DNA of 46,418 nucleotides. Origin: Myxococcales bacterium (GTDB taxonomy: Bacteria > Myxococcota_A > Polyangia > DRWM01 > JAAZOP01). A program made the translations under genes and the position numbers. Position 1 is the first letter of the stretch. Every line of letters starts with the position of its first letter. Under the pieces are notes generated by a model. That model searched no databases. It was not told where the DNA came from and was given only the letters and a program-made list of their open reading frames with translations. Shown one piece after another: positions 7,650 through 24,829 of this stretch. The stretch is from contig JAAZOP010000066.1 in the NCBI GenBank assembly GCA_012797735.1, forward strand, positions 1-46,418, in the 5' to 3' direction.

Positions 7650-8954
7650 TCATCGGTCGGCCGTCGCCGTCGCCCCCGGCGCGACGAACCGCCGGGTCAC
7701 TTCCGGCGGCAGTTGGCCGGGGTACACCTTCCCCTCGAAGAGGAAGGTCGGGGTGCCGCGAATCTGCAACGCCCGGGCCGCCTCGATGTCCGCCGCCACG
7801 ACCTGCCGCCCGCGGCCCGCTTCGAGACACTCCGCGAAGCGCCGTTCGTCCAGATCGGCGGCCGCGGCCACGTCCCGCGGCTCGATCGGTTCGCGACGAC
7901 GTCCCTGCTGGAACAGGAAGTCGTTGGCCGCCCAGAACTTCCCCTGCTCGTCGGCGCACGCCGCGAACTCCGCGTAGCGGCACGACCAGCGGTGGAACGG
8001 GCGGTCCACGTCGGGATGGCAGGCCTGGTCGAGCGGCAGGTGGCGGTGCACGACCTGGAGCCGCCCCGCGGCCTGCTGGACGAGCCGGCGCAACTCCTCG
8101 TGGCGACGGCCGCAGTACGGGCACTGGTAGTCGCTGAACTCCACCAGCACGAGGTCCGGATCGGCGGCACCGATCCAGGGATGGCCGTCCGCGGTGTGTC
8201 CGGTCGGCAGGCCGGCGTACGGAAGATCGAGCTTCGACTCCCAGTAGGCCGGCACCGCGGCGCGGACCGCGACGACCGTGCCCAGCGCGACCAGCGCCGC
8301 CGTCGCGGTCGCCGCCGGTCGCGCCGCCAATCCGCGGAGGTCGGCCGCCAGCGGCCGGTGCCCGGCGGCGCGCGCCCGGCGGCACGCCCCCAGCCCGACC
8401 CCCAGAATCGCGAAGTTCAGGACGTAGCTGCACAGGCACAGGATGCACAGGGACTCGATGTACAGGACGGAGATCGTACCCAGGACCGCGCTGACCACCG
8501 ACATCGCGGCGCCCAGGACGAGGAGCAGGCCGCAGGGCCAGGCCGGGTGGGGACGGCGGCGCACGAGGCCCCACCCGGCGAGCCCCGCCACCAGCGCGTA
8601 GCCGAACAGGCCCCAGACCGAAACCGGCAGACCGAGGAACACGGACCAGGGGCTGGCCGCCACCGTCTCGCAGTTCACCTGCTTGCTCAGCGCGCAGAAC
8701 GAGTGGAACGCGGGGTTGGTGTGGGTCTGCACATGGATCCGGGTCAACTCGACCGAGACGCCGAGCCCGGCCAGCGCCAGCACCAGCAGCGCGAGAAACG
8801 ACCAGCGCAGGGGCTTCGCCGGCGCCGCCGTCGCCCCCGCCGCGGGGATCGCCGGCTCGACCGTCCCGGTCGTGACGCCCGTCTCGGGGGTCGCCGGCGC
8901 CGTCGCGACGGGACGGTCGCCTCCTTCGCAGTCCTTCGCCTTCGCCTCGCCCAT
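7650..8954 (-). CDS. vitamin K epoxide reductase (VKOR) domain fused to DsbA-like thioredoxin-fold oxidoreductase
   Basis: N-terminal membrane domain with loop Cys pair (FCALSKQVNC) and membrane CxxC (CILC). C-terminal soluble domain with the DsbA-type active site FSDYQCPYC and ...IRGTPTFLF. Confidence 0.85.
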   Translation of the reverse strand: MGEAKAKDCEGGDRPVATAPATPETGVTTGTVEPAIPAAGATAAPAKPLRWSFLALLVLALAGLGVSVELTRIHVQTHTNPAFHSFCALSKQVNCETVAASPWSVFLGLPVSVWGLFGYALVAGLAGWGLVRRRPHPAWPCGLLLVLGAAMSVVSAVLGTISVLYIESLCILCLCSYVLNFAILGVGLGACRRARAAGHRPLAADLRGLAARPAATATAALVALGTVVAVRAAVPAYWESKLDLPYAGLPTGHTADGHPWIGAADPDLVLVEFSDYQCPYCGRRHEELRRLVQQAAGRLQVVHRHLPLDQACHPDVDRPFHRWSCRYAEFAACADEQGKFWAANDFLFQQGRRREPIEPRDVAAAADLDERRFAECLEAGRGRQVVAADIEAARALQIRGTPTFLFEGKVYPGQLPPEVTRRFVAPGATATADR

Positions 8955-13514: not shown

Positions 13515-16500
13515 ATGCCGAACACCGCATGGAGCCGCACCCTGTCGCCGTTGGTGGTCGCATCGTTGGTCGCGCTCGCCGCCGCCGCGGCCGCCGACCC
13601 GGTGCTGGTCGAGTTCCGCTCGCCGGACGGCACGCCGCTCGTCGCCGCCGGGGACGCCGCCGTCCCGTGGGGCCGCTCGGCGCACGAGGCGACGCGCAAG
13701 CAGGTGGAGGCCCGGGCGGAGGCGATCGCGACCGCCCGCGCGGCGCTGCTCGACTCGCTGGACGCCGATCTGCGGGCGCGCGCCCGCGGCGGCTACCGCC
13801 ACATCCCGCTCGTCCGGATGGACCTGACGGCGGAGCAGCAGGCGGCGGTGGCGCTCCACCCGCTGGTCGCCGGGGTCTACCCGGACCGGCTGCGCCGCCC
13901 GCGGCTCGAATCGTCGCTCGCCTACCTCGGCGCCGAACGCTGGCACGCGGCCGGCGACGACGGCTCCGGCACCGCGGTCGCGGTGCTCGACACCGGCATC
14001 CGCTACTGGAACGGCTACTTCGGCGCGTGCGATGCGCCGGGCGACGAAGGGTGCCGGGTGAAGGTGTTCGAGGGGTTCGCGACGTTGACCTTCGGCTCGG
14101 GCACCACCGATCCGTACGAGGTGGCGGAAGCCGAGCCGCACGGGACGAACGTCGGCGGGATTGTCGGCGGGGTGGCGCCCGGCACCGACCTGCTCAGCCT
14201 CGGCGTGTTCGCGGTCTATGACCCCGACCCCGAAACCGGATTCAGCGGCGGCGCGGCGTCGTCCGACGGGGACGTGGTCGAGGCGCTGGACTGGTGCATC
14301 GAGCACCAGGTCGAGTACCGGATCGTCGCCGCGAACATGTCGCTCGGGTCGGAGCCGGACCCGGACCTGCACGGGTACTGCACCGGCTGGATGGCGGGCT
14401 CGTACCTGTCGGCCTTCGCCAACACCCGCGCCGCCGGCATCCTTCCCGTCGTCGCCTCGGGGAACGAGTACGTGAAGACGGCGGTGGCGGCGCCGTCCTG
14501 CGTCGCGGCCGCCGTGCGGGTGGGCGCCGGCTACGACGATCCGGCCTTCGGCTACACGTGCGGCACCGGCCCCGTGGTGCCCGGCGCCGTCCTCTGCTTC
14601 TCGAACTCCAGCGCGCTGATCGATTTCATCGCCCCCGGCAACGACATCGATGCCGCGGGCCTGCTGGGCTACTCCGGCACCTCGATGGCCGCACCCCACG
14701 TCGCCGGTCTCGCCGCCGCCTACCAGGCCCGATACGGCACCGACCCGCTGTGGACGCTCGAACGGATGCGGGTCGACGCCGTGCCGGTCCCGGAGGCGTT
14801 CGTCGACCAGCCGTACATCCATCGCTACATCCGGATGGGCGACCACGACGCGGTGCTGCGGTTCGACACCGGCGCCGTGCTCGCCTCGGACTTCGACGGC
14901 CTGCCGATCCCCGACGGCGACCCGGCCGGGTTGTCCGTCTCGACCGAGGTGACGTGCGCGTCCGACGACTGCGTCTCGGGGGTCGTCGGCGCCGTGTACC
15001 TCGACCTGAACGTCGAGCACACCGCGACGGGGGAACTGGCCTTCGAGCTCGAGGCGCCCGACGGCACCACGGTACGGCACGAGGTGGTCGACGACGCGGA
15101 GCTGGGCCGGTACAACGTCAACTCGATCCTCGGCAGCCAGCACCTGCCGAACGCGTTCGACGCGCTGCGCGGCGTGCCGCTCGAGGGCACCTGGACGCTG
15201 CGCGTGATCGACGACACCGCGGGCACGGAGGACGGCGCGTTGTACCGCGCGGCGCTGCTGATCGATTCCGCGCGCGTCCGGCTGGAGGGCGCGATCGAGG
15301 GCCCGCGCATCGCGCGGCCGGGTGAACCGTTCTCCGTGGCGCTGGCGTTCGAGAATACCGGCAACCTCGAGATCACGGACGCGCCCGTCGAGGCGCGGCT
15401 CGTGCGGGCCGACACCGGCGCGGTGGTCGATGCCGCGCCGCTGGCCCTGCCCGTGCCGCTCGCCCCCGGCGCGACGTGGTCCGGAAGCGCCGAGCTGGCC
15501 GGGGACGACGAGGGGCGGTACGAGGTGCGGCTGGTCACGGGCGGTCTCACGCCCGACCTGCGGCCCGGCCTGGTCGCCGAGCCGTTCGAGTTGGCGGTGA
15601 CGCAGCGCACCTTCGCCTCGTTCGGGACCGATCCGCGGGTGCCCGAGCCGGAGCAGAACGCGCAACTCGTCAACTGGAGCGTGGGCCTGATCGACAGCTA
15701 TGCCTGGGACTTCGGCGACGGCACGACGTCCACGGAGGCCCGGCCGACGCATGCCTGGGCGGCCGAGGGGGAGTACGAGGTCCGGCTGACGGTGACCGGC
15801 CCCGACGGGACATCGACCGCCGCCCGGACCGTCCACGTCCGGGAGATCCTCGACCCGCTGCTGCTCGCCGAGGGCGGCGGGTGCGGCTGCGCGGTGCCCG
15901 GGTCGTCCGCCCGGGGGACGACCGCGGGTCTGCTGCTGCTCCTGGCGGGCGCGCTGGCGCTGCGCCGCCGGCGCCGCGCCTCCCTGTGGTCGCCGCTCGT
16001 CGCGGTCGCCGTCGGTCTCCTGGCCGCGGGCTGCGACGAGATCCGGCCGCGCGACTTCGACGCGGGCGTCGACGACAGCGGCCTCTACCCGTCGGGCCCC
16101 TGGATCTCGCTGCTCGGACCGGCCGATCCGACCCAGGGCGACGTGACGCTCCACCTGCGGCTGGGGCACGAGGGTTCGCGGCCGTGCGACCTGACGGTCG
16201 AGTACCGGGTCGGGGAGGGGGCCTGGCGACCCGCGACGCTCGACCCGTCGTCCGTCACGACAGGGTTGGCGTCCTCGCCCGAGGCGGGGACGGAGCACGC
16301 GCTCCTGTGGCGCTCCACGACCGACCTGCCCGGCGACACGCCCGGCGTCCGCGTGCGGGTGTCGGCCACGGACGGCGAGCGGGAGGCGGTCCCGGCGGTC
16401 ACCGAGCCGTTCCTGCTGCTCAACTTCTTCGTCACGCACCCGAAGCCCGTGCGGATCACCGAGGTGTCGGTCGCCGACAAGGACGCCGATTCGGGCGAGG

Positions 16501-17978
16501 TGATCGTGCCGGGGCGGACGCGCGACGACTACGTCGAGTTGGTCAACGTCACGACCGAGGACCTCGACCTGACCGGCTGGACGCTGCGCATCTCCAGCTC
16601 CAGCGGCGCGCGCGACGAGTTCCCCCTCGACGGCGTGGTGCTGCCCGCCGGCGGCCGGAAATCGATCGTCGAGGACGGGGCGGAGTACGGCGGCGGCTGG
16701 CCGTTGCCGCGCACGCTGCCCTGGACCCCCGGCGGCTACGGCAGCGCGGCCCTGGTGGCGACCTACGAACGCGGGGTCGATTTCGTGCGTTGGGGCGGTT
16801 CTCCGGAGCGCCCGCCGGCGGGTCTCGAGTGGACCGACGACCGGCCGCTCCCCGCTCCCCAGACGCTCACGGTGCTCAACCGCATCGAGGAATCGTCCGA
16901 CGGCGATCGGGCGAGCGATTTCTGCGTGGCGCACCCGTCGCCCGACGAGGCGTCGGCGGGCTGCCTGCCGCGCCTGCCGCGCGGCGCGGTGCTCGTCACC
17001 GAACTCGATTCGCAGGGCACCAACGACCAGATCGAGGTGCTCAACCGTTCCGGCGGCCCGGTCGATCTCGCCGGCTGGGTCGTGCTGTGGGACGGCGACG
17101 ACCTCGGCGCCGGCGCGATCCCTCTGGCGTCGTACGAGCTGGCCGACGGCCAGCGTCTCGGGCTCCGGGACAACGGCACCGCCGGGCGGATCGTCTCGGG
17201 CGTCATGCAGCTCGGCGCCAACCTCAACATCGATGGCCTGATCACCACCGCCGTCGGCCTCCAGGACCCCTACGGCGACGTGATCGATTTCCTCGCCGCC
17301 GGTGGCTCGACCGTCCGCTGGCTCGACTGGAACGACACCCATCCCACACCGATGCCGGGCCCGGATACCTCGCTGTCCCGCCGCCCCGGCGACCCGGACA
17401 CCGACAGTTCGGACGACTTCTGCCTGACCGTGCCGAACATCGGCGCCGCGCCCACCGAGTGCCTCGAACCGCTCGGCATCCGGCTGGTGATCGCCGAGAT
17501 GATGACCGGGCGTCCCGACTGGATCGAGATCTACAACCCCGGCCCCGAGGCGGTGGACCTGTCGCAGGTCTACGTCTCGTACACCGCGCCGTTCTACGGC
17601 GGCGCCGTCGGCGACTTCCTGTTGCGGGGTACGCTGGCGCCCGGCGCGCGGCAGGTCGTCGCCGACCGGGATCTTCCGGACGTCGAGGGCGAACTGCTGT
17701 TCAGCGAGAACGTCCAGCTCGCCTCGAACGGTGACGGCTCGGTCGCGTTGCGCGACGTGTACGGCTTCGGCATCGACTTCGTGATGTGGGGCGAGCCCGC
17801 CGGCGTTCCGCTGTGGCCCGACGTGTGGTTCGGGCTCGGCGCCGACAAGTATCCGACGGACGAAGATTCGATCTCGATCCAGCGCCGTCCGCCCGGCGAG
17901 ACCGACACCGACCGCCGCGACGACTGGTGCTGGGCGCTCCCGACCCCGCTGGCGCCCAACGGGCCCTGCCTGGAATAG
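13515..17978 (+). CDS. giant exported ORF: subtilisin-like S8 peptidase, P-domain, CARDB-like, PKD, MYXO-CTERM-like tag, then in frame a lipoprotein signal, Ig-like domain and 3 lamin-tail-like (LTD) repeats
   Basis: Signal peptide LVVASLVALAAAAAADP. S8 triad contexts: VAVLDTG (Asp, 13989-13991), HGTNVGG (His, 14139-14141), GTSMAAPHVAG (Ser, 14682-14684). Proprotein-convertase-type P-domain ending GTWTLRVIDDTAGTEDG. PKD signature WDFGDGTTS...YEVRLTVTG. Three LTD-like repeats (VRITEV...YVELVN...LTGW; VLVTEL...QIEVLN...LAGW; LVIAEM...WIEIYN). No in-frame stop anywhere. Confidence 0.85.
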   Translation: MPNTAWSRTLSPLVVASLVALAAAAAADPVLVEFRSPDGTPLVAAGDAAVPWGRSAHEATRKQVEARAEAIATARAALLDSLDADLRARARGGYRHIPLVRMDLTAEQQAAVALHPLVAGVYPDRLRRPRLESSLAYLGAERWHAAGDDGSGTAVAVLDTGIRYWNGYFGACDAPGDEGCRVKVFEGFATLTFGSGTTDPYEVAEAEPHGTNVGGIVGGVAPGTDLLSLGVFAVYDPDPETGFSGGAASSDGDVVEALDWCIEHQVEYRIVAANMSLGSEPDPDLHGYCTGWMAGSYLSAFANTRAAGILPVVASGNEYVKTAVAAPSCVAAAVRVGAGYDDPAFGYTCGTGPVVPGAVLCFSNSSALIDFIAPGNDIDAAGLLGYSGTSMAAPHVAGLAAAYQARYGTDPLWTLERMRVDAVPVPEAFVDQPYIHRYIRMGDHDAVLRFDTGAVLASDFDGLPIPDGDPAGLSVSTEVTCASDDCVSGVVGAVYLDLNVEHTATGELAFELEAPDGTTVRHEVVDDAELGRYNVNSILGSQHLPNAFDALRGVPLEGTWTLRVIDDTAGTEDGALYRAALLIDSARVRLEGAIEGPRIARPGEPFSVALAFENTGNLEITDAPVEARLVRADTGAVVDAAPLALPVPLAPGATWSGSAELAGDDEGRYEVRLVTGGLTPDLRPGLVAEPFELAVTQRTFASFGTDPRVPEPEQNAQLVNWSVGLIDSYAWDFGDGTTSTEARPTHAWAAEGEYEVRLTVTGPDGTSTAARTVHVREILDPLLLAEGGGCGCAVPGSSARGTTAGLLLLLAGALALRRRRRASLWSPLVAVAVGLLAAGCDEIRPRDFDAGVDDSGLYPSGPWISLLGPADPTQGDVTLHLRLGHEGSRPCDLTVEYRVGEGAWRPATLDPSSVTTGLASSPEAGTEHALLWRSTTDLPGDTPGVRVRVSATDGEREAVPAVTEPFLLLNFFVTHPKPVRITEVSVADKDADSGEVIVPGRTRDDYVELVNVTTEDLDLTGWTLRISSSSGARDEFPLDGVVLPAGGRKSIVEDGAEYGGGWPLPRTLPWTPGGYGSAALVATYERGVDFVRWGGSPERPPAGLEWTDDRPLPAPQTLTVLNRIEESSDGDRASDFCVAHPSPDEASAGCLPRLPRGAVLVTELDSQGTNDQIEVLNRSGGPVDLAGWVVLWDGDDLGAGAIPLASYELADGQRLGLRDNGTAGRIVSGVMQLGANLNIDGLITTAVGLQDPYGDVIDFLAAGGSTVRWLDWNDTHPTPMPGPDTSLSRRPGDPDTDSSDDFCLTVPNIGAAPTECLEPLGIRLVIAEMMTGRPDWIEIYNPGPEAVDLSQVYVSYTAPFYGGAVGDFLLRGTLAPGARQVVADRDLPDVEGELLFSENVQLASNGDGSVALRDVYGFGIDFVMWGEPAGVPLWPDVWFGLGADKYPTDEDSISIQRRPPGETDTDRRDDWCWALPTPLAPNGPCLE
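15873..16034 (+). other. internal MYXO-CTERM-like sorting tag directly abutting a lipoprotein signal peptide (junction 1)
   Basis: GGGCGCAVPGSSARGTTAGLLLLLAGALALRRRRR, then ASLWSPLVAVAVGLLAAG-C. Lipobox Cys codon at 16032-16034. CTG at 15960 precedes the Arg run. Confidence 0.7.
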
Positions 17979-18074: not shown

Positions 18075-20561
18075 ATGAGGTTCCCGGGCGACTCCGTCAT
18101 GAGCGGCATTCAGATCATCCTGGGCGAGCGTTGGGCGACGGATCGCGCCGTCGTGGAGCGCCTGCGATCCCATGATCGGAACCAGGGCGCATTCGATTTC
18201 GCCAATGTTCTCGACGTGGTGGACATCTTCGTGGACGGCGCGAACATCGGCGCCGCCGCCAGCGCCGACGCGATCGCCTGCCTCACCCGCGACCTGCTCG
18301 CGGCCCTGGGCCGCCTCCAGTCGGGCGAGGAGCAGAAGGTCGCGGTGCCGTTCTACGAGTCGTCGTTCGAGCTGGTGATCCAGCGGGTCGCGCGTCCTGC
18401 TCCGGCCCTGCCGCCGCCCGGTCGCCGGCGGCGCGTCCGCCGGCCTGCGGTCGAGGAGCCGAGGGTCCTGCTGACGTTCTTCCGCGGGGGGCCCTCGCCG
18501 GAGATCCTGCTGCGCCATCACGAGGTGCGGCTGCGCGAACTGGCCCGCGCGGTGGCCGGCGCCGGCAAGCGGCTGGCGAACCAGATCGTGAAACTCAACC
18601 GGGCGATGGCCGAGGACGCCTTCGTCCGCGACCTGCGGCAGCTCGCCGAGCGGGTCGGGCAGGCCGGTCCGCCACCGGGCGCGATCGTGGAGCCCGAGCG
18701 GGCGAGGCTGGAGGGGCGGGGCTGGGACCGCATCCCGGTGCGCCACGTGCCGACGTTCGTGTTCCGCGGCGACGCCACCTGGAGCGATCTGCTCGGTCCC
18801 GCGCTTCCCGACCGCGCGGACCTGTCCGCCCTGCTGTTCCGCGGGGACCTTGCGGTGTGGGACGGGCCGCGGCGTCGTCTCGTCGGCCGGGGACACCTGT
18901 TCCTCGTCGCGGAGCGGCTGCTCGCCGTCGCCCGCCACCTGCTCGAGGCCCGCGACAACGGCCGCCCGCCCGCCTCGCTGCGCCTGCAGTGCAACGGCCT
19001 GCTGGTCGGCGTGCGGCCGGGGGAGGGCGACGAGGTGATCCTGTCGTTCGCCGATCGGGTCGACGACCAGGAGCCGGTCACCGTGGCGTTCCGCGACCCG
19101 GAGGCGCTGGTCGGCGTCCTGTTGACGTTCGGCGGCGACCTCCGCCGCGCGATCCTCGAGACGGCGCCCGCCCAGCGGCGCAACCTGCGGTTGCAGGCCT
19201 TCACCGCCGAGCTGCGCCAGCTCGGCGCCTGGCGCGCCGACCTGATGAGCAAGGCGGTGGTCAACCGCGACCCGGCGTCCTACCGCGTCGAGCCATTCGG
19301 CGAGAGCGAGCCGCCGGAGCCGCCGGTGCTGCCGGTGCTGCTCCACGGCGAGCCGCGCCGCATGCGCTACCTCGAGCGCTGGCACCTCGAGGCGGCCGGA
19401 CTGGAGCTGGGCTCGACGTACCTCTGCGGCGACCGGTTGCTCGTGCCCACGGCCGACGCGCTGCTGGCCATCGACCGCGACTCGGGCGAGGTGCTGTGGC
19501 GGTTGGCGGAGCCGAGCCCCGCGGGGCCGCCCGCCGCCGTCGCCTCGGTGATGGTCGGCAACCGCGGCGTGGCCCGCGTCTCGCCCGGGGGCCGCGTCGG
19601 CCTGCTCGAACTGGACACCGGCGCCGAGGTCTGGTCGACCCGCATCCGCCCCACCGTCGGCCGCCCGACCGGCACGACGCTCGGCAGCGCCCGCGCGCCG
19701 CGACTGATCGTGGTGGCCGAGGGCGCTGCGGCCGACCGCGGCCTCGTCGCGCTCGACGCGATCACCGGCGAGGCGCGCTGGCGTTTTGCGGCGCGGCGGG
19801 CCGCCGAGGACGCGACGTTCGAGTTCCAGCGCGCCGGCCGGATCCTGGTCGTCGTCTGCGGCGACTCGGCGATCTACGGCCTGGACGCCGACACCGGTGC
19901 CACCGTCTGGCGCTTCGCCGACCGGGTGCGCTTCGTGCTGCGCCCGCGCCTGGCGCGCGACATGGTCGTCGCCGTCGCCGGCCAGCCGGGGCGTCCCGGC
20001 GCCGCGCTCTACGCCCTCGATGCCTACTCCGGCCGCCCGATCTGGAAGCGCTCCATCCCCGGCGCGCCGCTCGCCGCCCCGACCGTCAGCCAGACCGTGG
20101 CGGTCGTCGCCACCGCCGACCCCGGCGGCGTCGGGCGCCCCGGCTTCACCGCCGTCGAAACGCTCACCGGAACCCCGCTGTGGCGCCGCAGCCTGCCGGG
20201 CCTCGAGCACGGATTCTCCGCGCTGCCGGTCGAGGAGCGGGTCGTGGTCAACGTCGCGGGCGGCTACGTCGCCGCCCTCGAGGCCCCCTCGGGCGACATC
20301 GCCTGGGAGCACCGCGCGGGCGGCGACACCTCCGACATCCCGCAACGCCTCGAGCCGATCCTCCGCGGGACGACGCTGTTCGTGCCGATGGACACGGTGC
20401 AGGTGCTGCGGGCCGACGACGGCGAGGTCGTCCACCGCCTCGACGACGGGCTGGTTCCCGACTGGGTCCGCGTCGACGAGCGCGCCCACCTGTACGTCGG
20501 CGAGCAGTCCGGCCATCTGGCCGCCTACGGCGTCGCCGCCCGGCTCGCCGTCGTGAAATAG
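18075..20561 (+). CDS. cytoplasmic protein: unknown ~430-aa N-terminal region plus C-terminal PQQ-like/BamB-like beta-propeller repeats
   Basis: No signal peptide. Repeats: LLAIDRDSGEVLWR, LLELDTGAEVWS, LVALDAITGEARWR, IYGLDADTGATVWR, LYALDAYSGRPIWK, AVETLTGTPLWR, VAALEAPSGDIAWE. ATG 18099 is an alternative start. Confidence 0.8.
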   Translation: MRFPGDSVMSGIQIILGERWATDRAVVERLRSHDRNQGAFDFANVLDVVDIFVDGANIGAAASADAIACLTRDLLAALGRLQSGEEQKVAVPFYESSFELVIQRVARPAPALPPPGRRRRVRRPAVEEPRVLLTFFRGGPSPEILLRHHEVRLRELARAVAGAGKRLANQIVKLNRAMAEDAFVRDLRQLAERVGQAGPPPGAIVEPERARLEGRGWDRIPVRHVPTFVFRGDATWSDLLGPALPDRADLSALLFRGDLAVWDGPRRRLVGRGHLFLVAERLLAVARHLLEARDNGRPPASLRLQCNGLLVGVRPGEGDEVILSFADRVDDQEPVTVAFRDPEALVGVLLTFGGDLRRAILETAPAQRRNLRLQAFTAELRQLGAWRADLMSKAVVNRDPASYRVEPFGESEPPEPPVLPVLLHGEPRRMRYLERWHLEAAGLELGSTYLCGDRLLVPTADALLAIDRDSGEVLWRLAEPSPAGPPAAVASVMVGNRGVARVSPGGRVGLLELDTGAEVWSTRIRPTVGRPTGTTLGSARAPRLIVVAEGAAADRGLVALDAITGEARWRFAARRAAEDATFEFQRAGRILVVVCGDSAIYGLDADTGATVWRFADRVRFVLRPRLARDMVVAVAGQPGRPGAALYALDAYSGRPIWKRSIPGAPLAAPTVSQTVAVVATADPGGVGRPGFTAVETLTGTPLWRRSLPGLEHGFSALPVEERVVVNVAGGYVAALEAPSGDIAWEHRAGGDTSDIPQRLEPILRGTTLFVPMDTVQVLRADDGEVVHRLDDGLVPDWVRVDERAHLYVGEQSGHLAAYGVAARLAVVK

Positions 20562-20788
20562 CGCGGGCCGGAGTCGCCCGGAAGCCGCTGGGCGGCGAGG
20601 AATCGGCCCGTCCGCCAGGGTGGAGCGTCGCCGGCGCCGCCCGGCGGTTCGGCCGCCGCCCGAATTCGCGGCGGAAATCCGGGCCGCCGCTGTTGCTGGC
20701 CCCCCCTTCGTACGCTACACTTCCTCCGTTCGTCGCGCGGCGCGGGAGGACGGCTTCCGGCGCCGGTGCGACGCGCGGAGGACTCGCG

Positions 20789-23700
20789 ATGATGCAGCGC
20801 GCACGGTGGCTGGCCCTGTTCCTGCTCTGGTTCGCCTTCCAGGCCTGCGACGGGGGCGGCTGCGGCGGCTGCATGGAGCCGATCCCGGGCGGCTTCCCGC
20901 TCGCCCGCCGGGTCGAGAACGCGCTCCAGTTCCGCTTCACCCCCTCCGGCATCACCTTCCTGGAGACGCACGCCCGCGAACTGGTCGCCTCGCTGATGCC
21001 GGGCGGTCTGACCTTCGACATCCCCGAGTCCCGATCCAGCGTCGCCGTCGTCGGCGACGTCACGATCTGCCCGGGCGGCGGCTGCACCGCCACCGTCTCG
21101 ATCCGCGGCGTCGACATCCAGCCGACGCCTCCCTCCTCGCTGGTCATCGTGGCGCAGCTCGAGGTGGTGACGTCGAACATCCGGCTCTCGACCGAGCGGA
21201 ACGCGACGTGCCTGTGGCTGTCGGGCTTCGAGTGCGACGTGGATGTCGACACCCGCCGCGCCTCGCCGACCTACAACACGATCCGCGCCACCTTGACGTT
21301 CCGGATCGACACGACGACGGGCTACACGGCCCTGGACGTGACCGACGCGGGCCTCGCCGACGACCTGCAGAACGAGGACATCCGGATCGAGTCCGCGAAC
21401 ACCTGCGGCGCCATCTGGTGTTCGATCGCCAACATCGGCTTCGTCAAGGACTACATCATCGGCACGCTCGAGGACCAGCTGATGAGCACGCTCGACGACT
21501 CGCTGGCCTCGATCCGCTGCATGGCCTGCCCCGACAGCGGCTGCCCGGCCGGCAGCACCTGCAACGGCGACGGCTTCTGCCAGCGTTCCGACGGGACGTG
21601 CGTGCCGACGCTGCTCGGCGTCGAGGGGCAGATGGACCTCGGCGACGTGATGGGTTCGTTCTCCCCCGGCCTGTCCGCCCCGATCCAGCTCCTCGCGGCG
21701 GCCGGCGGCTACGCCAACGTCGACGGCAACGGCCTGAATCTCGGCCTGTTCGGCGGCCTCGAGGCGCCGTCGCCGAGCGCGTGCATTCCGGCCGCCTCCA
21801 CCGGCGACTACTCGCCGGTCGCCCGCGCCCCCGAGTTCGCCACGGGCGACACGTTCACGCACTGCCGGCGCTGCCCGACCGGCTCCGAGTGTTCCGCCGG
21901 GTACACCTGCTCGCCGGCCGGCGAGTGCCGGGACGATGCCGGGGCCTGCGAGATGCGGACCGAGCCGGTGATGGTGAAGCTCGGCGTCTCCGAACAGTTC
22001 CTCAACCGCGCGCTGGGCGGCGTGTTCGACTCCGGCGCCCTCTGCCTCGGCGTCAGCACCGCCGCGGTCCCGCAGCTCAACTCCTCGATGCTCGGCCTGC
22101 TGATGCCCGCCATCTCCATCCTCACCTGGGATCGGACGGTGCCGGTCGCGATCGAGGTCCGCCCGCAGCGGCCGCCGCGGATCGAGGTCGGCGAGACGCT
22201 CACGCTGCCCGACGGCACGGACCTGCCGGCCGACACGCTGCTCGTCGTGCACCTCGACGAGGCGCAACTCGATTTCTACCTCTGGATGTTCGAGCGTTAC
22301 GTGCGGATCCTGACGGTGCAGATGGACCTGATCGTGGGCCTGCGCCTGGGAGTGGAGGACGGCGCGATCGTCCCGTCGATCAGCGCGCTGGCGGCCGACA
22401 ACGTCCTGGTCACCGACGCGGAGATCATCGGTCCGCCGAACAACATCAACGACCTGTTCCGCGACCTGCTCGGGCTGGTGGCGGGGATGATCCCGCCGTT
22501 CGACCCGATCGCGCTGCCGGAGTTCTCCGGTTTCCTGCTCCAGGTCCCCGACGGCGGCATCACGCACGTCGCCGTCGGCGAGGAGGATTTCCTGGCGATC
22601 CACGCCAACCTCGCCGTCGCCGCGGCGCCGGCGCCCCACACCGAGACCTTCGCCCGCGTCACGTCGCTCGACGTGCCCGCCGCGGCGCCCCGGCCGGGCC
22701 GCGAACCGGCGCGGCTGGCCGACCTCCTGCCGACGCTGACGATCGATGCCGCCGCCCGCGCTCCGGCGCCGACCGATCGCGCCTTCGACTACCGCTGGCG
22801 GCTGGACGGCGGGTCCTGGTCGCCCTGGACGCGCGATGCCCGGCTGGTGATCCGCGACCCGCGGCTGGTCTTCGCCGGCGACCACGTCGTCGAGGTCCAG
22901 TCAAGGCTGGCCGACGACGACCGGACGATCGACCGCGACCCGGTGCGGATCGAGCTGCCGGTCGAGGGCGCGGCGCCGCTGGTCGGCACGACGCACCGCC
23001 GCGATCCCTCCCGCGTCCCCTCCACCGGCCTGCGCGGCCGGCCCGACGCCGGCTCGACCTCGTCGTCGGGCTGCGGGTGCGCCGTGCCGGCCGGCCGGTC
23101 CCGGCCGCTCCCCCTGCTGCTCGGCCTGGCGCTCGGCGCCGTCCTCGTTTTGCGACGACGCTGCCGCGCCCTCCTGGCGCTCGCCGGCCTCGTCGCCGTC
23201 GCCGCGGCCGGCACGGCGGTCCTCGGCTGCGGCGACTCGAACAATCCCCCCGCGGACACGGTTTCGGGCTGCACCGCGGACGACCAGTGCAGCGACGGCC
23301 GCTGTTGCCCGGGCACGGGCGAGTGCGTTCCGCTCCCGCCGGCCGACGGGTTCTGTCCGCCCGGCTACGGCTGTCTGGACGGCTCGGGCAGCTTCGATCC
23401 GAGCTGGAATGCGGAGACCTGCGAGTACACGACGGACTGCTGCGCCGAACTGCCGCCGCTGCCGCAGGGCTTCGTCGGGTCGCACTCCGAGGTCGCCGCG
23501 GCGCCGGACGGCACGATCTGGGTCAGCGCCTACTCCGCCGGCCCCAGCTCCCGCTCGCCCTACGGCGACCTGGTCGCCGGCACCTGGGACGCCTCGACCG
23601 CCGCGGTGGACTGGGAGCACGTCGACGGAGTCCCCGCCGGCGTCACCCCGACCGGTTCGGTCACCGGGTGGCGCGGCGGGATCTCGCAGCCCGGCGACGA

Positions 23701-24829
23701 CGTCGGGCAGTACTCCGCCATCGCCGTCGGTCCCGACGGCCGCCCGCGCATCGCGTACTACGACGCCACGCACGGCGCGCTGAAGTACGCCGTCCGCGGT
23801 GCCTCCGGCTGGGTCGTCGGCGCCCCGGTCGATGACGAGGGCGACGCGGGACGCTACGCGGACCTGGCGATCGGTCCCGACGGCCGCCCGGTCATCTCCT
23901 ACAACGCCCTGGTCGAATCGACCGAGTACCCCGGCGCGTGGGTTTCGCAGATCAAGGTCGCGCGGGCCAACGACGAGGCGGGGACGAGCTGGCACGTGAC
24001 CGAGGTCGAGTCGGTCGACATCCCGTGCTGGAAGGAGCTGTGCGGCGAGGGCCGCGTCTGCGTCGCCTCGACCCGCGAGTGCGTCGTGCCCGACCCGGAG
24101 TCGGCCTGCGGCTCGAGCGGTTGCGCCTCGGGCGAGGAGTGCGTCGACGGGTCGTGCGTCGAGGTTTTCGAGACCGCGATCGATTTCCCGGAAGGGGTCG
24201 GCATCGTGACGGGGATCGACTTCCTGCCCTCGGGCGAGCCGCTGGTGGTGTACTACGACCGCGGCGCCTGGAACCGCCTCTCCGGCGAACTCCAGCCCCA
24301 CGGCGACCTGAAGCAGGCGGTGTGGTCCGGCTCCGCCTGGTCCGTCACCGTGCTCGACGGCTCCGGCACCGACGCCGGCTGGTACCCGTCGGTCGATGTC
24401 GACGGCGCCGGGACCCGCCACATCGCCTACGTCGACGGCATCGCCGAGGCGCTGATCTACCTGAACCCGGACGCCGGCGTGCGTGAGGTCGTCGACGGCC
24501 GCTCGATGCCGGGCCGTGCGCGCAGCATCGTCGGCGACGACTCCTCGATCCGCGCCACCGCCGCGGGCGACGTCTGGATCGCCTACCAGGACGCCACCGC
24601 CCGCACGCTGATGCTGGCCCACCGTGCCCCCGGCGGCGGCTGGACCACCGCGAGCTACGACACCGGCACCGACTCCGCCGGCTTCTTCGCCACCCTGGTG
24701 CTCGCGCCCGACGCCGTCACGCCGGTCGTCTCGACGTACTGGCACCGCACGACGACCAGCGGCACCTCGACGACGCGGTACGCCTACGAGGTGGGTGTGA
24801 CGGTGTTCGAGGGGCCGCCGTCGCCGTAG
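20789..24829 (+). CDS. giant exported ORF: lipoprotein signal, BPI/LBP-like two-barrel module with Cys-rich insert, MYXO-CTERM-like tag, then in frame a second lipoprotein signal, Cys-rich region and beta-propeller-like repeats
   Basis: Track ORF 18857..24829 has a junk N-terminal extension overlapping the PQQ-repeat gene. The in-frame ATG at 20789 gives MMQRARWLALFLLWFAFQAC (lipobox). Second module repeats: AIAVGPDGRPRIAYYD, DLAIGPDGRPVISYN, IDFLPSGEPLVVYYD, SVDVDGAGTRHIAYVD, AAGDVWIAYQD. Confidence 0.8.
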   Translation: MMQRARWLALFLLWFAFQACDGGGCGGCMEPIPGGFPLARRVENALQFRFTPSGITFLETHARELVASLMPGGLTFDIPESRSSVAVVGDVTICPGGGCTATVSIRGVDIQPTPPSSLVIVAQLEVVTSNIRLSTERNATCLWLSGFECDVDVDTRRASPTYNTIRATLTFRIDTTTGYTALDVTDAGLADDLQNEDIRIESANTCGAIWCSIANIGFVKDYIIGTLEDQLMSTLDDSLASIRCMACPDSGCPAGSTCNGDGFCQRSDGTCVPTLLGVEGQMDLGDVMGSFSPGLSAPIQLLAAAGGYANVDGNGLNLGLFGGLEAPSPSACIPAASTGDYSPVARAPEFATGDTFTHCRRCPTGSECSAGYTCSPAGECRDDAGACEMRTEPVMVKLGVSEQFLNRALGGVFDSGALCLGVSTAAVPQLNSSMLGLLMPAISILTWDRTVPVAIEVRPQRPPRIEVGETLTLPDGTDLPADTLLVVHLDEAQLDFYLWMFERYVRILTVQMDLIVGLRLGVEDGAIVPSISALAADNVLVTDAEIIGPPNNINDLFRDLLGLVAGMIPPFDPIALPEFSGFLLQVPDGGITHVAVGEEDFLAIHANLAVAAAPAPHTETFARVTSLDVPAAAPRPGREPARLADLLPTLTIDAAARAPAPTDRAFDYRWRLDGGSWSPWTRDARLVIRDPRLVFAGDHVVEVQSRLADDDRTIDRDPVRIELPVEGAAPLVGTTHRRDPSRVPSTGLRGRPDAGSTSSSGCGCAVPAGRSRPLPLLLGLALGAVLVLRRRCRALLALAGLVAVAAAGTAVLGCGDSNNPPADTVSGCTADDQCSDGRCCPGTGECVPLPPADGFCPPGYGCLDGSGSFDPSWNAETCEYTTDCCAELPPLPQGFVGSHSEVAAAPDGTIWVSAYSAGPSSRSPYGDLVAGTWDASTAAVDWEHVDGVPAGVTPTGSVTGWRGGISQPGDDVGQYSAIAVGPDGRPRIAYYDATHGALKYAVRGASGWVVGAPVDDEGDAGRYADLAIGPDGRPVISYNALVESTEYPGAWVSQIKVARANDEAGTSWHVTEVESVDIPCWKELCGEGRVCVASTRECVVPDPESACGSSGCASGEECVDGSCVEVFETAIDFPEGVGIVTGIDFLPSGEPLVVYYDRGAWNRLSGELQPHGDLKQAVWSGSAWSVTVLDGSGTDAGWYPSVDVDGAGTRHIAYVDGIAEALIYLNPDAGVREVVDGRSMPGRARSIVGDDSSIRATAAGDVWIAYQDATARTLMLAHRAPGGGWTTASYDTGTDSAGFFATLVLAPDAVTPVVSTYWHRTTTSGTSTTRYAYEVGVTVFEGPPSP
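23069..23230 (+). other. internal MYXO-CTERM-like sorting tag directly abutting a lipoprotein signal peptide (junction 2)
   Basis: GCGCAVPAGRSRPLPLLLGLALGAVLVLRRR, then CRALLALAGLVAVAAAGTAVLG-C. Lipobox Cys codon at 23228-23230. TTG at 23150 precedes the Arg run. Confidence 0.7.

Follow-up and report, generated by a model that had tools for sequence, protein, structure and literature searches.

How can a sorting tag of the kind expected at the end of a protein and a signal peptide of the kind expected at the beginning of one come to lie side by side within a single reading frame, and what would become of the protein so encoded? The question is raised by ORF2 (20789–24829, forward strand; 1346 amino acids plus stop), one of two such genes in the 46,418-nucleotide stretch of DNA analysed here (the window). 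ORF2 encodes a precursor in which two exported modules are fused, in the order lipoprotein signal, BPI-like module, MYXO-CTERM tag, h-region of a lipoprotein signal and β-propeller module. This fusion is no artefact: it is conserved, it recurs, and it retains both processing motifs. We infer, with a probability of roughly 0.65, that the joint between the modules forms a membrane helical hairpin that is cut on both sides, by a myxosortase and by Lgt/LspA, and that two proteins result.

ORF2, its modules and its joint

The start of ORF2 is the ATG at 20789, which has the sequence GGAGGA 7 nt upstream and opens the MMQRARW start common to ORF2 homologues, the full-length proteins P0001–P0007 all beginning at the same Met. 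The first-pass annotation of this DNA had assigned the joint to a ‘giant ORF’ of 1990 codons (18857–24829), but about 644 of these codons, rich in Arg and Pro, are spurious. Such a spurious extension is normal for DNA of 74% GC. A missing stop codon alone would be weak evidence for the junction in DNA so rich in GC; we regard the junction as real because the frame is continuous and because the fusion is conserved in homologues from independent assemblies. The joint (23069–23230) is read without a stop and without a change of frame, the first stop being at 24827–24829, and third-position GC lies between 0.86 and 1.00 in one frame from 22400 to 24000, that is, across the joint. Since it is high in the same frame on both sides, there is no hidden frameshift.

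Module 1 is preceded by a lipoprotein-type signal peptide, MMQRARWLALFLLWFAFQA followed by Cys20 (20789–20848, forward strand, as are all features described here), so that the N-terminal signal expected of MYXO-CTERM proteins is present. Alignment A1 of the homologues shows Cys20 to be nearly invariant, and the N-termini of the family carry L-A-(A/G)-C lipoboxes, the consensus being a lipoprotein signal. The module itself (20849–23068) was modelled with AF2 (pLDDT 79, pTM 0.75) as a BPI/LBP/CETP-like (TULIP) fold followed by β-sandwich domains, and a Foldseek search of the PDB returned BPI (1ewf, E 8.7e-19) along with LBP and CETP (4m4d, 2obd) at a probability of 1.00. According to the model, then, module 1 is a two-barrel BPI fold, an assignment made at the level of fold only. 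A Pfam scan of the ORF2 protein of the window gave no match for module 1, while PF02886 is present in one distant homologue of the module, P0055.

Module 2 (23228–24826; 533 amino acids, 55 kDa) comprises a Cys-rich linker and a β-propeller, and has the form of a lipoprotein. Its AF2 model was of higher confidence (pLDDT 89.5, pTM 0.85) and matched propeller lectins and pseudaminidase in Foldseek (E ~1e-11); residues 1–34 of this model have a pLDDT below 50, and AF2 gives no information on the hairpin. Directly upstream of ORF2 lies a gene for a BamB-like PQQ β-propeller (18075–20561; Pfam PQQ_2, 4.4e-30). An 805-amino-acid PQQ_2 gene is likewise found directly upstream of the fused homologue P0007 (locus L009), and the neighbour of ORF2 is thus conserved there.

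The joint reads as it had first been described, with the motif, the TTG codon, the Arg run and the lipobox Cys all in the positions originally assigned to them. The tag, which had gone unrecognised, is on sequence grounds the known MYXO-CTERM sorting signal (TIGR03901). In ORF2 it occupies 23069–23167 and consists of the motif GCGCAVP (23069–23089, residues 761–767), the TM helix PLPLLLGLALGAVLVL (23105–23152, hydropathy segment of residues 773–789) and the basic cluster RRRCR (23153–23167), directly before which stands the TTG codon (23150–23152). An internal lipoprotein signal peptide (23153–23230; hydropathy segment of residues 792–814, ending in a conserved Cys) follows, with the 20-residue h-region ALLALAGLVAVAAAGTAVLG (23168–23227) and the lipobox V-L-G-C, in which Cys814 is encoded by TGC at 23228–23230. 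The cluster RRRCR therefore serves both as the basic cluster of the tag and as the n-region of the signal. The features of a MYXO-CTERM, a Cys in the signature motif and a TM helix followed by 2–5 basic residues, are all present, except that 553 residues come after the Arg cluster where a C-terminal location is expected. Similarly, the positive n-region, uncharged h-region and lipobox of an SPase II substrate are found, in a signal that starts at residue 789 and not at the N-terminus. TIGR03901 matched the excised joint peptide at 21.4 and 20.8 bits, which is marginal against a cut-off of 20, and no match was reported when the whole 1346-residue protein was scanned. A second model, NF058595 (‘invert_tail / lipo-invert C-terminal anchoring domain’), aligned across the hairpin below its threshold (19 bits; cut-off 37) and reached E≤0.01 in six of 30 joints; a literature search for NF058595 returned no paper mentioning the domain.

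The same joint occurs in ORF1 (13515–17978), in which a region with S8 protease, P-domain and PKD domains precedes the tag (motif 15879–15899, TM helix 15918–15962, RRRRR 15963–15977) and the tag is followed by a lipoprotein signal (15978–16031), a lipobox Cys (16032–16034) and, after the joint, three LTD domains. Here TIGR03901 scored 22.8 bits (residues 787–821), with a range across runs of 22.8–28 bits. GCGCAVP is indeed identical at the two junctions, as originally pointed out, and the pairings proposed at that time, of a BPI-like protein with a propeller in ORF2 (Foldseek) and of an S8 protease/PKD protein with LTD domains in ORF1, were also right. Six-frame translation of the window revealed no MYXO-CTERM-like tag besides these two joints, both of them internal. 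The idea that a mobile junction cassette had been copied from one ORF to the other was considered and discarded: DNA alignment showed compositional similarity only, with the motif out of register, and as the two joints are no more alike in DNA than their GC-rich composition makes them, neither is a copied cassette.

Conservation, fusion and fission

The ORF2 fusion is kept in about 34 clusters of homologues, at 27–87% identity, from independent assemblies (JGI, NCBI, ENA and Logan); all are metagenome-derived and labelled as Myxococcales, Polyangiales or Deltaproteobacteria MAGs. Module 2 was homologous in every fused ORF2 homologue tested, and the ORF1 fusion of S8 protease and LTD domains is kept in 22 clusters. 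The earlier argument that a sequencing error was unlikely, made from the two junctions of the window, is thus strengthened by conservation of the same in-frame fusion in both families. Among the fused proteins of the two families, the tag Cys, the first TM helix and the lipobox Cys are kept in 57 of 57, and the lipobox Cys is invariant among the 31 fused homologues of alignment A2. Position −1 of the lipobox is G, A or S in 56 of 57 automatically trimmed joints, three of which were mis-trimmed and later corrected manually. The h-region varies from 11 to 25 amino acids across the 57 joints, and the loop between the helices from 3 to 44, the latter always with a net positive charge (+2 to +12); together with the hydropathy segments, these loop charges bear out the two-helix hairpin with a positive loop that had been suggested for the joint. 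TIGR03901 was matched in 24 of 30 joints. A scan of genome contigs yielded three near-identical MAG loci only, too few for a view across taxa, and in the flanking DNA of the relatives (~110 kb, a sample too small to give a rate) internal joints were confined to the seeded genes.

Some relatives of ORF2, about 22, have module 1 as a stand-alone protein, ending 0–9 residues after the basic cluster with the one exception of P0039, where 23 residues follow. Two of these loci, those of P0017 (L002/L003) and P0030 (L004), are split with module 2 as the next gene. Module 1 ends there in ...RRRGGGR* or ...RRRTR*, the next gene is a homologue of module 2 (phmmer E 7e-74 and 4e-68), the two genes are joined by an ATGA overlap, and a Shine–Dalgarno (SD) sequence, GGAGAGGAGG or GGAGGA, lies inside the Arg codons. 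Module 2 is thus encoded in the split relatives by a separate lipoprotein gene, whose product begins with an N-terminal lipoprotein signal (L002, L004), and these loci have the adjacent pair of genes, with the tag at the end of the first, that is looked for in fusions of the type of the archaeal protein HVO_0405 (L002/L003, L004). On the family tree (neighbour-joining, 54 sequences, full module 1) the state changes between fused and split about nine times (8–9 in 50 bootstrap replicates). This alternation speaks against the view, first put forward for this locus, that the arrangement is ‘obligatory’ or ‘designed’; being fused is optional for these genes and readily gained or lost in evolution. 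A Met is retained in the loop by five of the 57 fused forms, and in sequence these residues are consistent with relic start codons.

Proposed processing and its alternatives

We propose that ORF2 originated when two neighbouring genes, until then coupled in translation, fused naturally, the first of them encoding a MYXO-CTERM-tagged BPI-like surface protein and the one downstream a β-propeller lipoprotein. In the precursor, the N-terminal signal peptide would export module 1, after which the MYXO-CTERM helix would halt transfer so that the Arg cluster stays in the cytoplasm. The second hydrophobic segment would then re-insert N-in/C-out as a signal peptide and export module 2, so that a hairpin of two helices would form, its short loop positively charged and lying in the cytoplasm. 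Lgt and LspA would lipidate and cut at Cys814, freeing module 2 as an ordinary lipoprotein, while myxosortase (MrtX) would cut at the GCGC motif and free module 1 for surface delivery, the hairpin peptide of ~5 kDa being thrown away. A single precursor thus probably yields two lipid-anchored proteins. As both ends of the joint would be cleavage sites, fusing or splitting the genes by a 1-nt change of frame at the ATGA overlap would be nearly harmless, which would explain why both states recur. MrtX is an intramembrane protease of the CPBP family. No genes for MrtX (CPBP family), Lgt, LspA or the T2SS were found among those scanned in the 46-kb window, and their presence in the host genome is assumed from the taxon.

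A less favoured explanation, which we consider unlikely, is that the ORF2 protein stays whole or is cut only once and resides in the inner membrane, where a two-helix anchor would hold together its two ectodomains in the periplasm, the BPI-like module and the propeller. A pair of hydrophobic helices joined by a positive loop is indeed nothing unusual as a membrane hairpin. However, a plain anchor requires neither the GC.C motif nor the lipobox Cys, and all 57 fused proteins keep both; moreover, in close relatives the modules are two distinct proteins, each with an anchor of its own, and the archaeal analogue HVO_0405 is cleaved. The split relatives and the roughly nine changes of state are hard to reconcile with a function that needs the covalent link. 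More improbable still is dual use of the gene, with module 2 made also, or mainly, by internal initiation, for which TTG 23150 in ORF2 and CTG 15960 in ORF1 had been put forward as starts. The position of the TTG directly before the Arg run would suit such initiation, as would the loop Met of the five fused homologues, but no SD sequence is found 4–12 nt upstream of an in-frame ATG, GTG or TTG at the joints of the window genes or of L005, L008 and L009, in contrast to the strong GGAGG-type SD sequences at the true start (20789) and in the split relatives. The TTG is also replaced by CTG in L005, which is 82% identical, and in L009. With neither an SD sequence nor a conserved start in the fused genes, we do not uphold the proposal of internal initiation.

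It might also be argued that two genes were merged by a sequencing or assembly frameshift, or by a recent inactivating mutation. Gain or loss of one nucleotide at an ATGA overlap would suffice, metagenome assemblies do contain such errors, and in one MAG a contig break falls exactly at the joint (L006/L007). Nevertheless, dozens of divergent homologues from independent assemblies, the most distant at 27% identity, have the fusion; module 2 is fully conserved, third-position GC is at least 0.9 before and after the joint, and the ORF1 family has the same kind of fusion in the same window, so that an artefact or pseudogene is effectively refuted. Processing of the hairpin from both sides is the reading that we favour.

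Wider occurrence and known systems

Joints in which a tag leads into a signal peptide in this way were also detected by an exhaustive profile search in unrelated proteins, one of them a PEP-CTERM concatemer of 10 units. It had been said at the outset that an absence of internal joints from all other genomes would count against the arrangement; many genomes have them. The arrangement is thus not only conserved and recurrent but extends to unrelated proteins and to the PEP-CTERM tag system, and we suggest, tentatively, that joints of the form ‘sorting tag – Arg cluster – signal peptide’ may represent a general and so far undescribed class of bacterial self-resolving polyproteins. If so, the product of one ORF would pass back and forth through the membrane, and cuts by the sorting protease and by a signal peptidase would divide it into between 2 and 10 surface proteins, each with its own anchor. 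The basic cluster of each tag would at the same time be the n-region of the signal that follows, and partners would be delivered stoichiometrically and co-localized. The class would cover MYXO-CTERM with lipoprotein signals, MYXO-CTERM with SPase I signals and PEP-CTERM concatemers. To our knowledge, hardly any bacterial polyproteins resolve themselves by way of the export machinery, and literature searches on internal lipoprotein signals, polyproteins and tandem or internal PEP-CTERM found nothing relevant. Annotation pipelines expect tags at the C-terminus and signals at the N-terminus, and will therefore miss or mislabel fused genes. Such genes are also ready reporter substrates, as HVO_0405 is for archaeosortase, since a defect in myxosortase or LspA should be visible as 140 kDa versus 78 + 55 kDa. 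They are ‘Rosetta stone’ links too, predicting a joint function for the BPI-like surface protein and propeller lipoprotein of ORF2, and for the S8 protease and LTD lipoprotein of ORF1.

The structural polyproteins of flaviviruses and hepaciviruses and the FbcH cytochrome b/c1 precursor of Bradyrhizobium are cut by signal peptidase; in these, alternating stop-transfer and internal signals thread one chain, and resident signal peptidases cut it. Only signal peptidase I is involved there, whereas the cuts predicted for ORF2 are those of MrtX and Lgt/LspA, so that both products would be lipid-anchored. An LPXTG signal has been reported to be functional when placed mid-protein (Navarre & Schneewind, 1994). 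In TraA/TraB of Myxococcus xanthus and other MYXO-CTERM operons, the gene for the tagged protein lies directly upstream of an overlapping partner gene (PMC11980579). This overlap resembles the ATGA overlap of the split ORF2 relatives, but TraA/TraB are still two ORFs, while in ORF2 a single reading frame has taken the place of the overlap. Also in M. xanthus, MXAN_5598 has an internal MYXO-CTERM for which processing has been proposed (PMC11980579); it shares with ORF2 the type of tag and the phylum, but its modules, compared here by their published description, are an adhesin and an OmpA-type β-barrel, and it was a single discussion example, presented without analysis downstream of the tag, fusion/fission comparison or experiment. 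A comparable fusion, with processing shown and not only proposed as in MXAN_5598, is already known from an archaeon: HVO_0405 of Haloferax volcanii is the product of a gene fusion, in which a PGF tripartite signal lies centrally and cleavage depends on ArtA (PMC7157517). Its processing is also treated by Abdul Halim et al. (2017, J Bacteriol 199:e00802-16). Like ORF2, it owes to the fusion of two genes a mid-protein sorting signal of motif, TM helix and basic residues, and the sorting enzyme frees its N-terminal part, as we propose for ORF2. It differs in being archaeal, in using PGF/ArtA in place of MYXO-CTERM/MrtX and in being a Tat substrate, and its fusion is, as described, strain-specific, whereas that of ORF2 is conserved over a broad family and recurs many times. 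In ORF2, unlike HVO_0405, the tag leads directly into the signal peptide of a lipoprotein, and the two have the Arg cluster in common.

Reading frame and composition of the joint

The window has a GC content of approximately 74 %, so that long stop-free ORFs are found in every frame. The giant ORF at 18857–24829 (1990 codons) singled out by the first-pass annotation is partly spurious for this reason: 644 codons at its 5' end spell out only meaningless Arg/Pro-rich sequence, and the true start of ORF2 is ATG 20789, with GGAGGA 7 nt upstream and a product of 1346 aa. The stop-less joint within it is real, as GC at the third position is 0.86–1.00 in a single frame across 22400–24000 and no frame change was found in ORF2 through the joint, the first stop lying at 24827. 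The elements of this joint (junction 2, + strand) had been placed exactly: GCGCAVP motif (23069–23089), hydrophobic helix (23105–23152), RRRCR (23153–23167), second hydrophobic segment (23168–23227) and lipobox Cys codon (23228–23230), with a TTG codon at 23150. The claim that ORF1 has the same architecture also holds, its joint (junction 1) carrying an identical GCGCAVP core. Six-frame translation revealed MYXO-CTERM-like tags in the window at these two junctions only, and comparison of their DNA showed that neither is a copy of the other.

Profile scores identify the tag at both junctions as MYXO-CTERM, a known sorting signal (TIGR03901; 22.8–28 bits at junction 1 and 20.8–21.4 bits at junction 2, cut-off 20). 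The segment 3' of the junction 2 tag shows all the hallmarks of a lipoprotein signal peptide, with a basic n-region, an h-region of 20 residues and V-L-G-C as the lipobox. A sub-threshold match to NCBIfam NF058595, ‘lipo-invert putative C-terminal anchoring domain’ (19 bits, cut-off 37), spans both helices (aa 20–74 of the 79-aa junction peptide, window ~23084–23248); this model is matched at E<=0.01 by 6 of 30 joints, and no mention of the term ‘lipo-invert’ was found in the literature searched.

The annotated pairings of protease with LTD protein and of BPI-like protein with propeller lipoprotein were correct. In ORF1 (13515–17978), an S8 protease, a P-domain and PKD precede the joint, and three LTD domains follow it. 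Module 1 of ORF2 (aa 20–760) has no Pfam match, and its AF2 model (pLDDT 79, pTM 0.75) matches BPI, LBP and CETP with E values between 1e-19 and 1e-15; module 2 is modelled (pLDDT 89.5, pTM 0.85) as a beta-propeller resembling bacterial lectins and sialidases. Module 1 begins with a lipoprotein-type signal (20789–20848) whose Cys20 is nearly invariant in the family, which suggests that the BPI-like protein may be lipid-anchored at both ends. Cys20 is followed by a GGC.GC motif, and the C-x-C found after both lipobox Cys residues (e.g. GCDCG) is similar to the tag's GCGC motif.

The surroundings are ordinary chromosomal sequence, in which no genes for the sorting machinery were found. A BamB-like PQQ beta-propeller gene (18075–20561, +) lies directly upstream of ORF2, in the same order as in a relative (58 % identical; L009:7359–9776), and may be a third partner. 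A VKOR-DsbA/thioredoxin fusion protein for disulfide-bond formation (7653–8912, −) is encoded near these Cys-rich exported proteins, and in another relative a 1214-aa amidohydrolase and LTD gene (L008:14811–18455) adjoins the fused ORF2 homologue P0016.

Fused and split homologues

Protein searching identified 58 clusters of ORF2 homologues, approximately 34 of which are fusions (1215–1571 aa, 27–87 % identity) sharing the internal Cys tag, TM helix, Arg cluster and second hydrophobic segment that ends in the lipobox Cys; their module 2 is homologous as well (phmmer E 1e-25 to 1e-243). ORF1 is conserved as a fusion in 22 clusters (53–87 % identity). This conservation excludes an assembly artefact as the source of the fusion, bearing out the earlier view that it is no sequencing error and that two exported partners are co-translated. 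In an uncultured Myxococcales MAG (binchicken_co60_5; L006/L007) a contig break falls precisely at the joint of the ortholog, leaving query residues 1–773 on one contig and 813–1346 on another; the GC-rich, low-complexity stretch may be troublesome for assemblers.

Contrary to one of the earlier proposals, the arrangement is not obligatory, since parsimony on an NJ tree built from 54 module 1 sequences gives nine changes between the fused and split states (8–9 in 50 bootstrap replicates). Stand-alone module 1 proteins (approximately 22 clusters) end 0–9 residues past the Arg cluster, except for P0039 (23 residues). At two split loci the next gene is a module 2 homologue with an N-terminal lipoprotein signal (MRPALSWAAAGALAIAVLPGC..., MKRTIGHASLLAVLATVGC...); its start and the module 1 stop share an ATGA, and the Arg codons ahead of it contain GGAGAGGAGG or GGAGGA. 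Shifting the frame by a single nucleotide would turn either form into the other, and five fused proteins keep a Met in the loop between the two helices.

All 57 fused proteins of the two families retain both Cys residues, that of the tag and that of the lipobox, the latter being invariant throughout the alignment of fused homologues, and lipobox position −1 is G, A or S in 56/57 automatically trimmed joints (three were mis-trimmed and later hand-corrected). The loop varies from 3 to 44 residues with a net charge that is always positive (+2 to +12); some loops contain acidic runs and one an internal duplication. The duplication is a tandem one in P0009 (PALSERSESKGAL-RRRR-PALSERSESKGAL), and DDDDD runs occur in other loops. 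The cytoplasmic loop appears to evolve freely, and such conserved ends around a variable, positive loop are what would be expected if functional processing sites flank a disposable segment.

The same joint in unrelated proteins

A 59-position profile of the joint, run exhaustively as an HMM against 1.84 billion representative proteins, gave 38 matches at E<=1e-3, a number that gives no frequency estimate because the search is biased towards internal joints. On inspection, the matches include unrelated proteins whose internal joints are built in the same way. A MYXO-CTERM tag precedes a lipoprotein signal in P0187, P0189, P0190, P0200, P0209, P0212 and P0213, and, in concatemers made up of two to four paralogous units, a signal of AxA type (P0179, P0183, P0193 and P0195, of 2822–4697 aa; P0191, P0194, P0202 and P0206). 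Each unit of these concatemers has its own AxA-type signal peptide and tag, the final tag lying at the true C-terminus, as though entire genes had been duplicated in tandem and in frame. PEP-CTERM concatemers were also found. P0180 (NCBI MCA9247495.1, Planctomycetales MAG) was checked at the DNA level and is one 7.5 kb, 2500-aa ORF with a terminal stop only (L010:96–7598); most of the nine internal copies among its ten VPEPS...RRRR tags directly precede a signal-peptide-like segment, indicating a concatemer of complete secreted-protein units. P0188 comprises six such units, with six tags.

Proposed processing and comparison with known systems

Our working hypothesis is that ORF2 is processed into two proteins by two cuts. 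Sec would carry module 1 out, the MYXO-CTERM helix would halt transfer and keep the Arg cluster inside, and the next signal peptide would re-insert and export module 2. Cleavage at Cys814 by Lgt/LspA and at the GCGC motif by myxosortase would then yield products of ~78 and ~55 kDa, a 5 kDa hairpin being discarded.

The product may instead stay uncut as a hairpin-anchored protein, but this would explain neither why the Cys motifs are conserved nor why fused genes alternate so often with gene pairs. Internal initiation at TTG 23150, the dual use suggested earlier, finds no support: in the window and in three relatives (L005, L008, L009) every in-frame start at the joint lacks an SD, and the TTG is replaced by CTG in L005 (82 % identical) and L009, whereas strong SDs are present at the true ORF2 start and in split relatives.

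The plausibility of two-cut processing is supported by precedent. The enzyme acting on MYXO-CTERM is MrtX, and tagged proteins are delivered to the surface via the T2SS (PMC11980579). Internal MYXO-CTERM tags have been called rare, the single example being MXAN_5598, which has been proposed to arise by gene fusion and to be processed (PMC11980579). In archaea, the fusion protein HVO_0405, with a central PGF signal, undergoes ArtA-dependent cleavage (PMC7157517); there, too, gene fusion has made a sorting tag internal, although processing has been shown for HVO_0405 and is inferred for ORF2. An internal sorting tag arising by gene fusion is of a kind already known from isolated cases, with processing shown in one archaeal protein. 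What is new is the direct joining of tag and lipoprotein signal, which share an Arg cluster, how broadly the joint is conserved, how repeatedly fusion and fission have occurred, and the existence of concatemers of many units.
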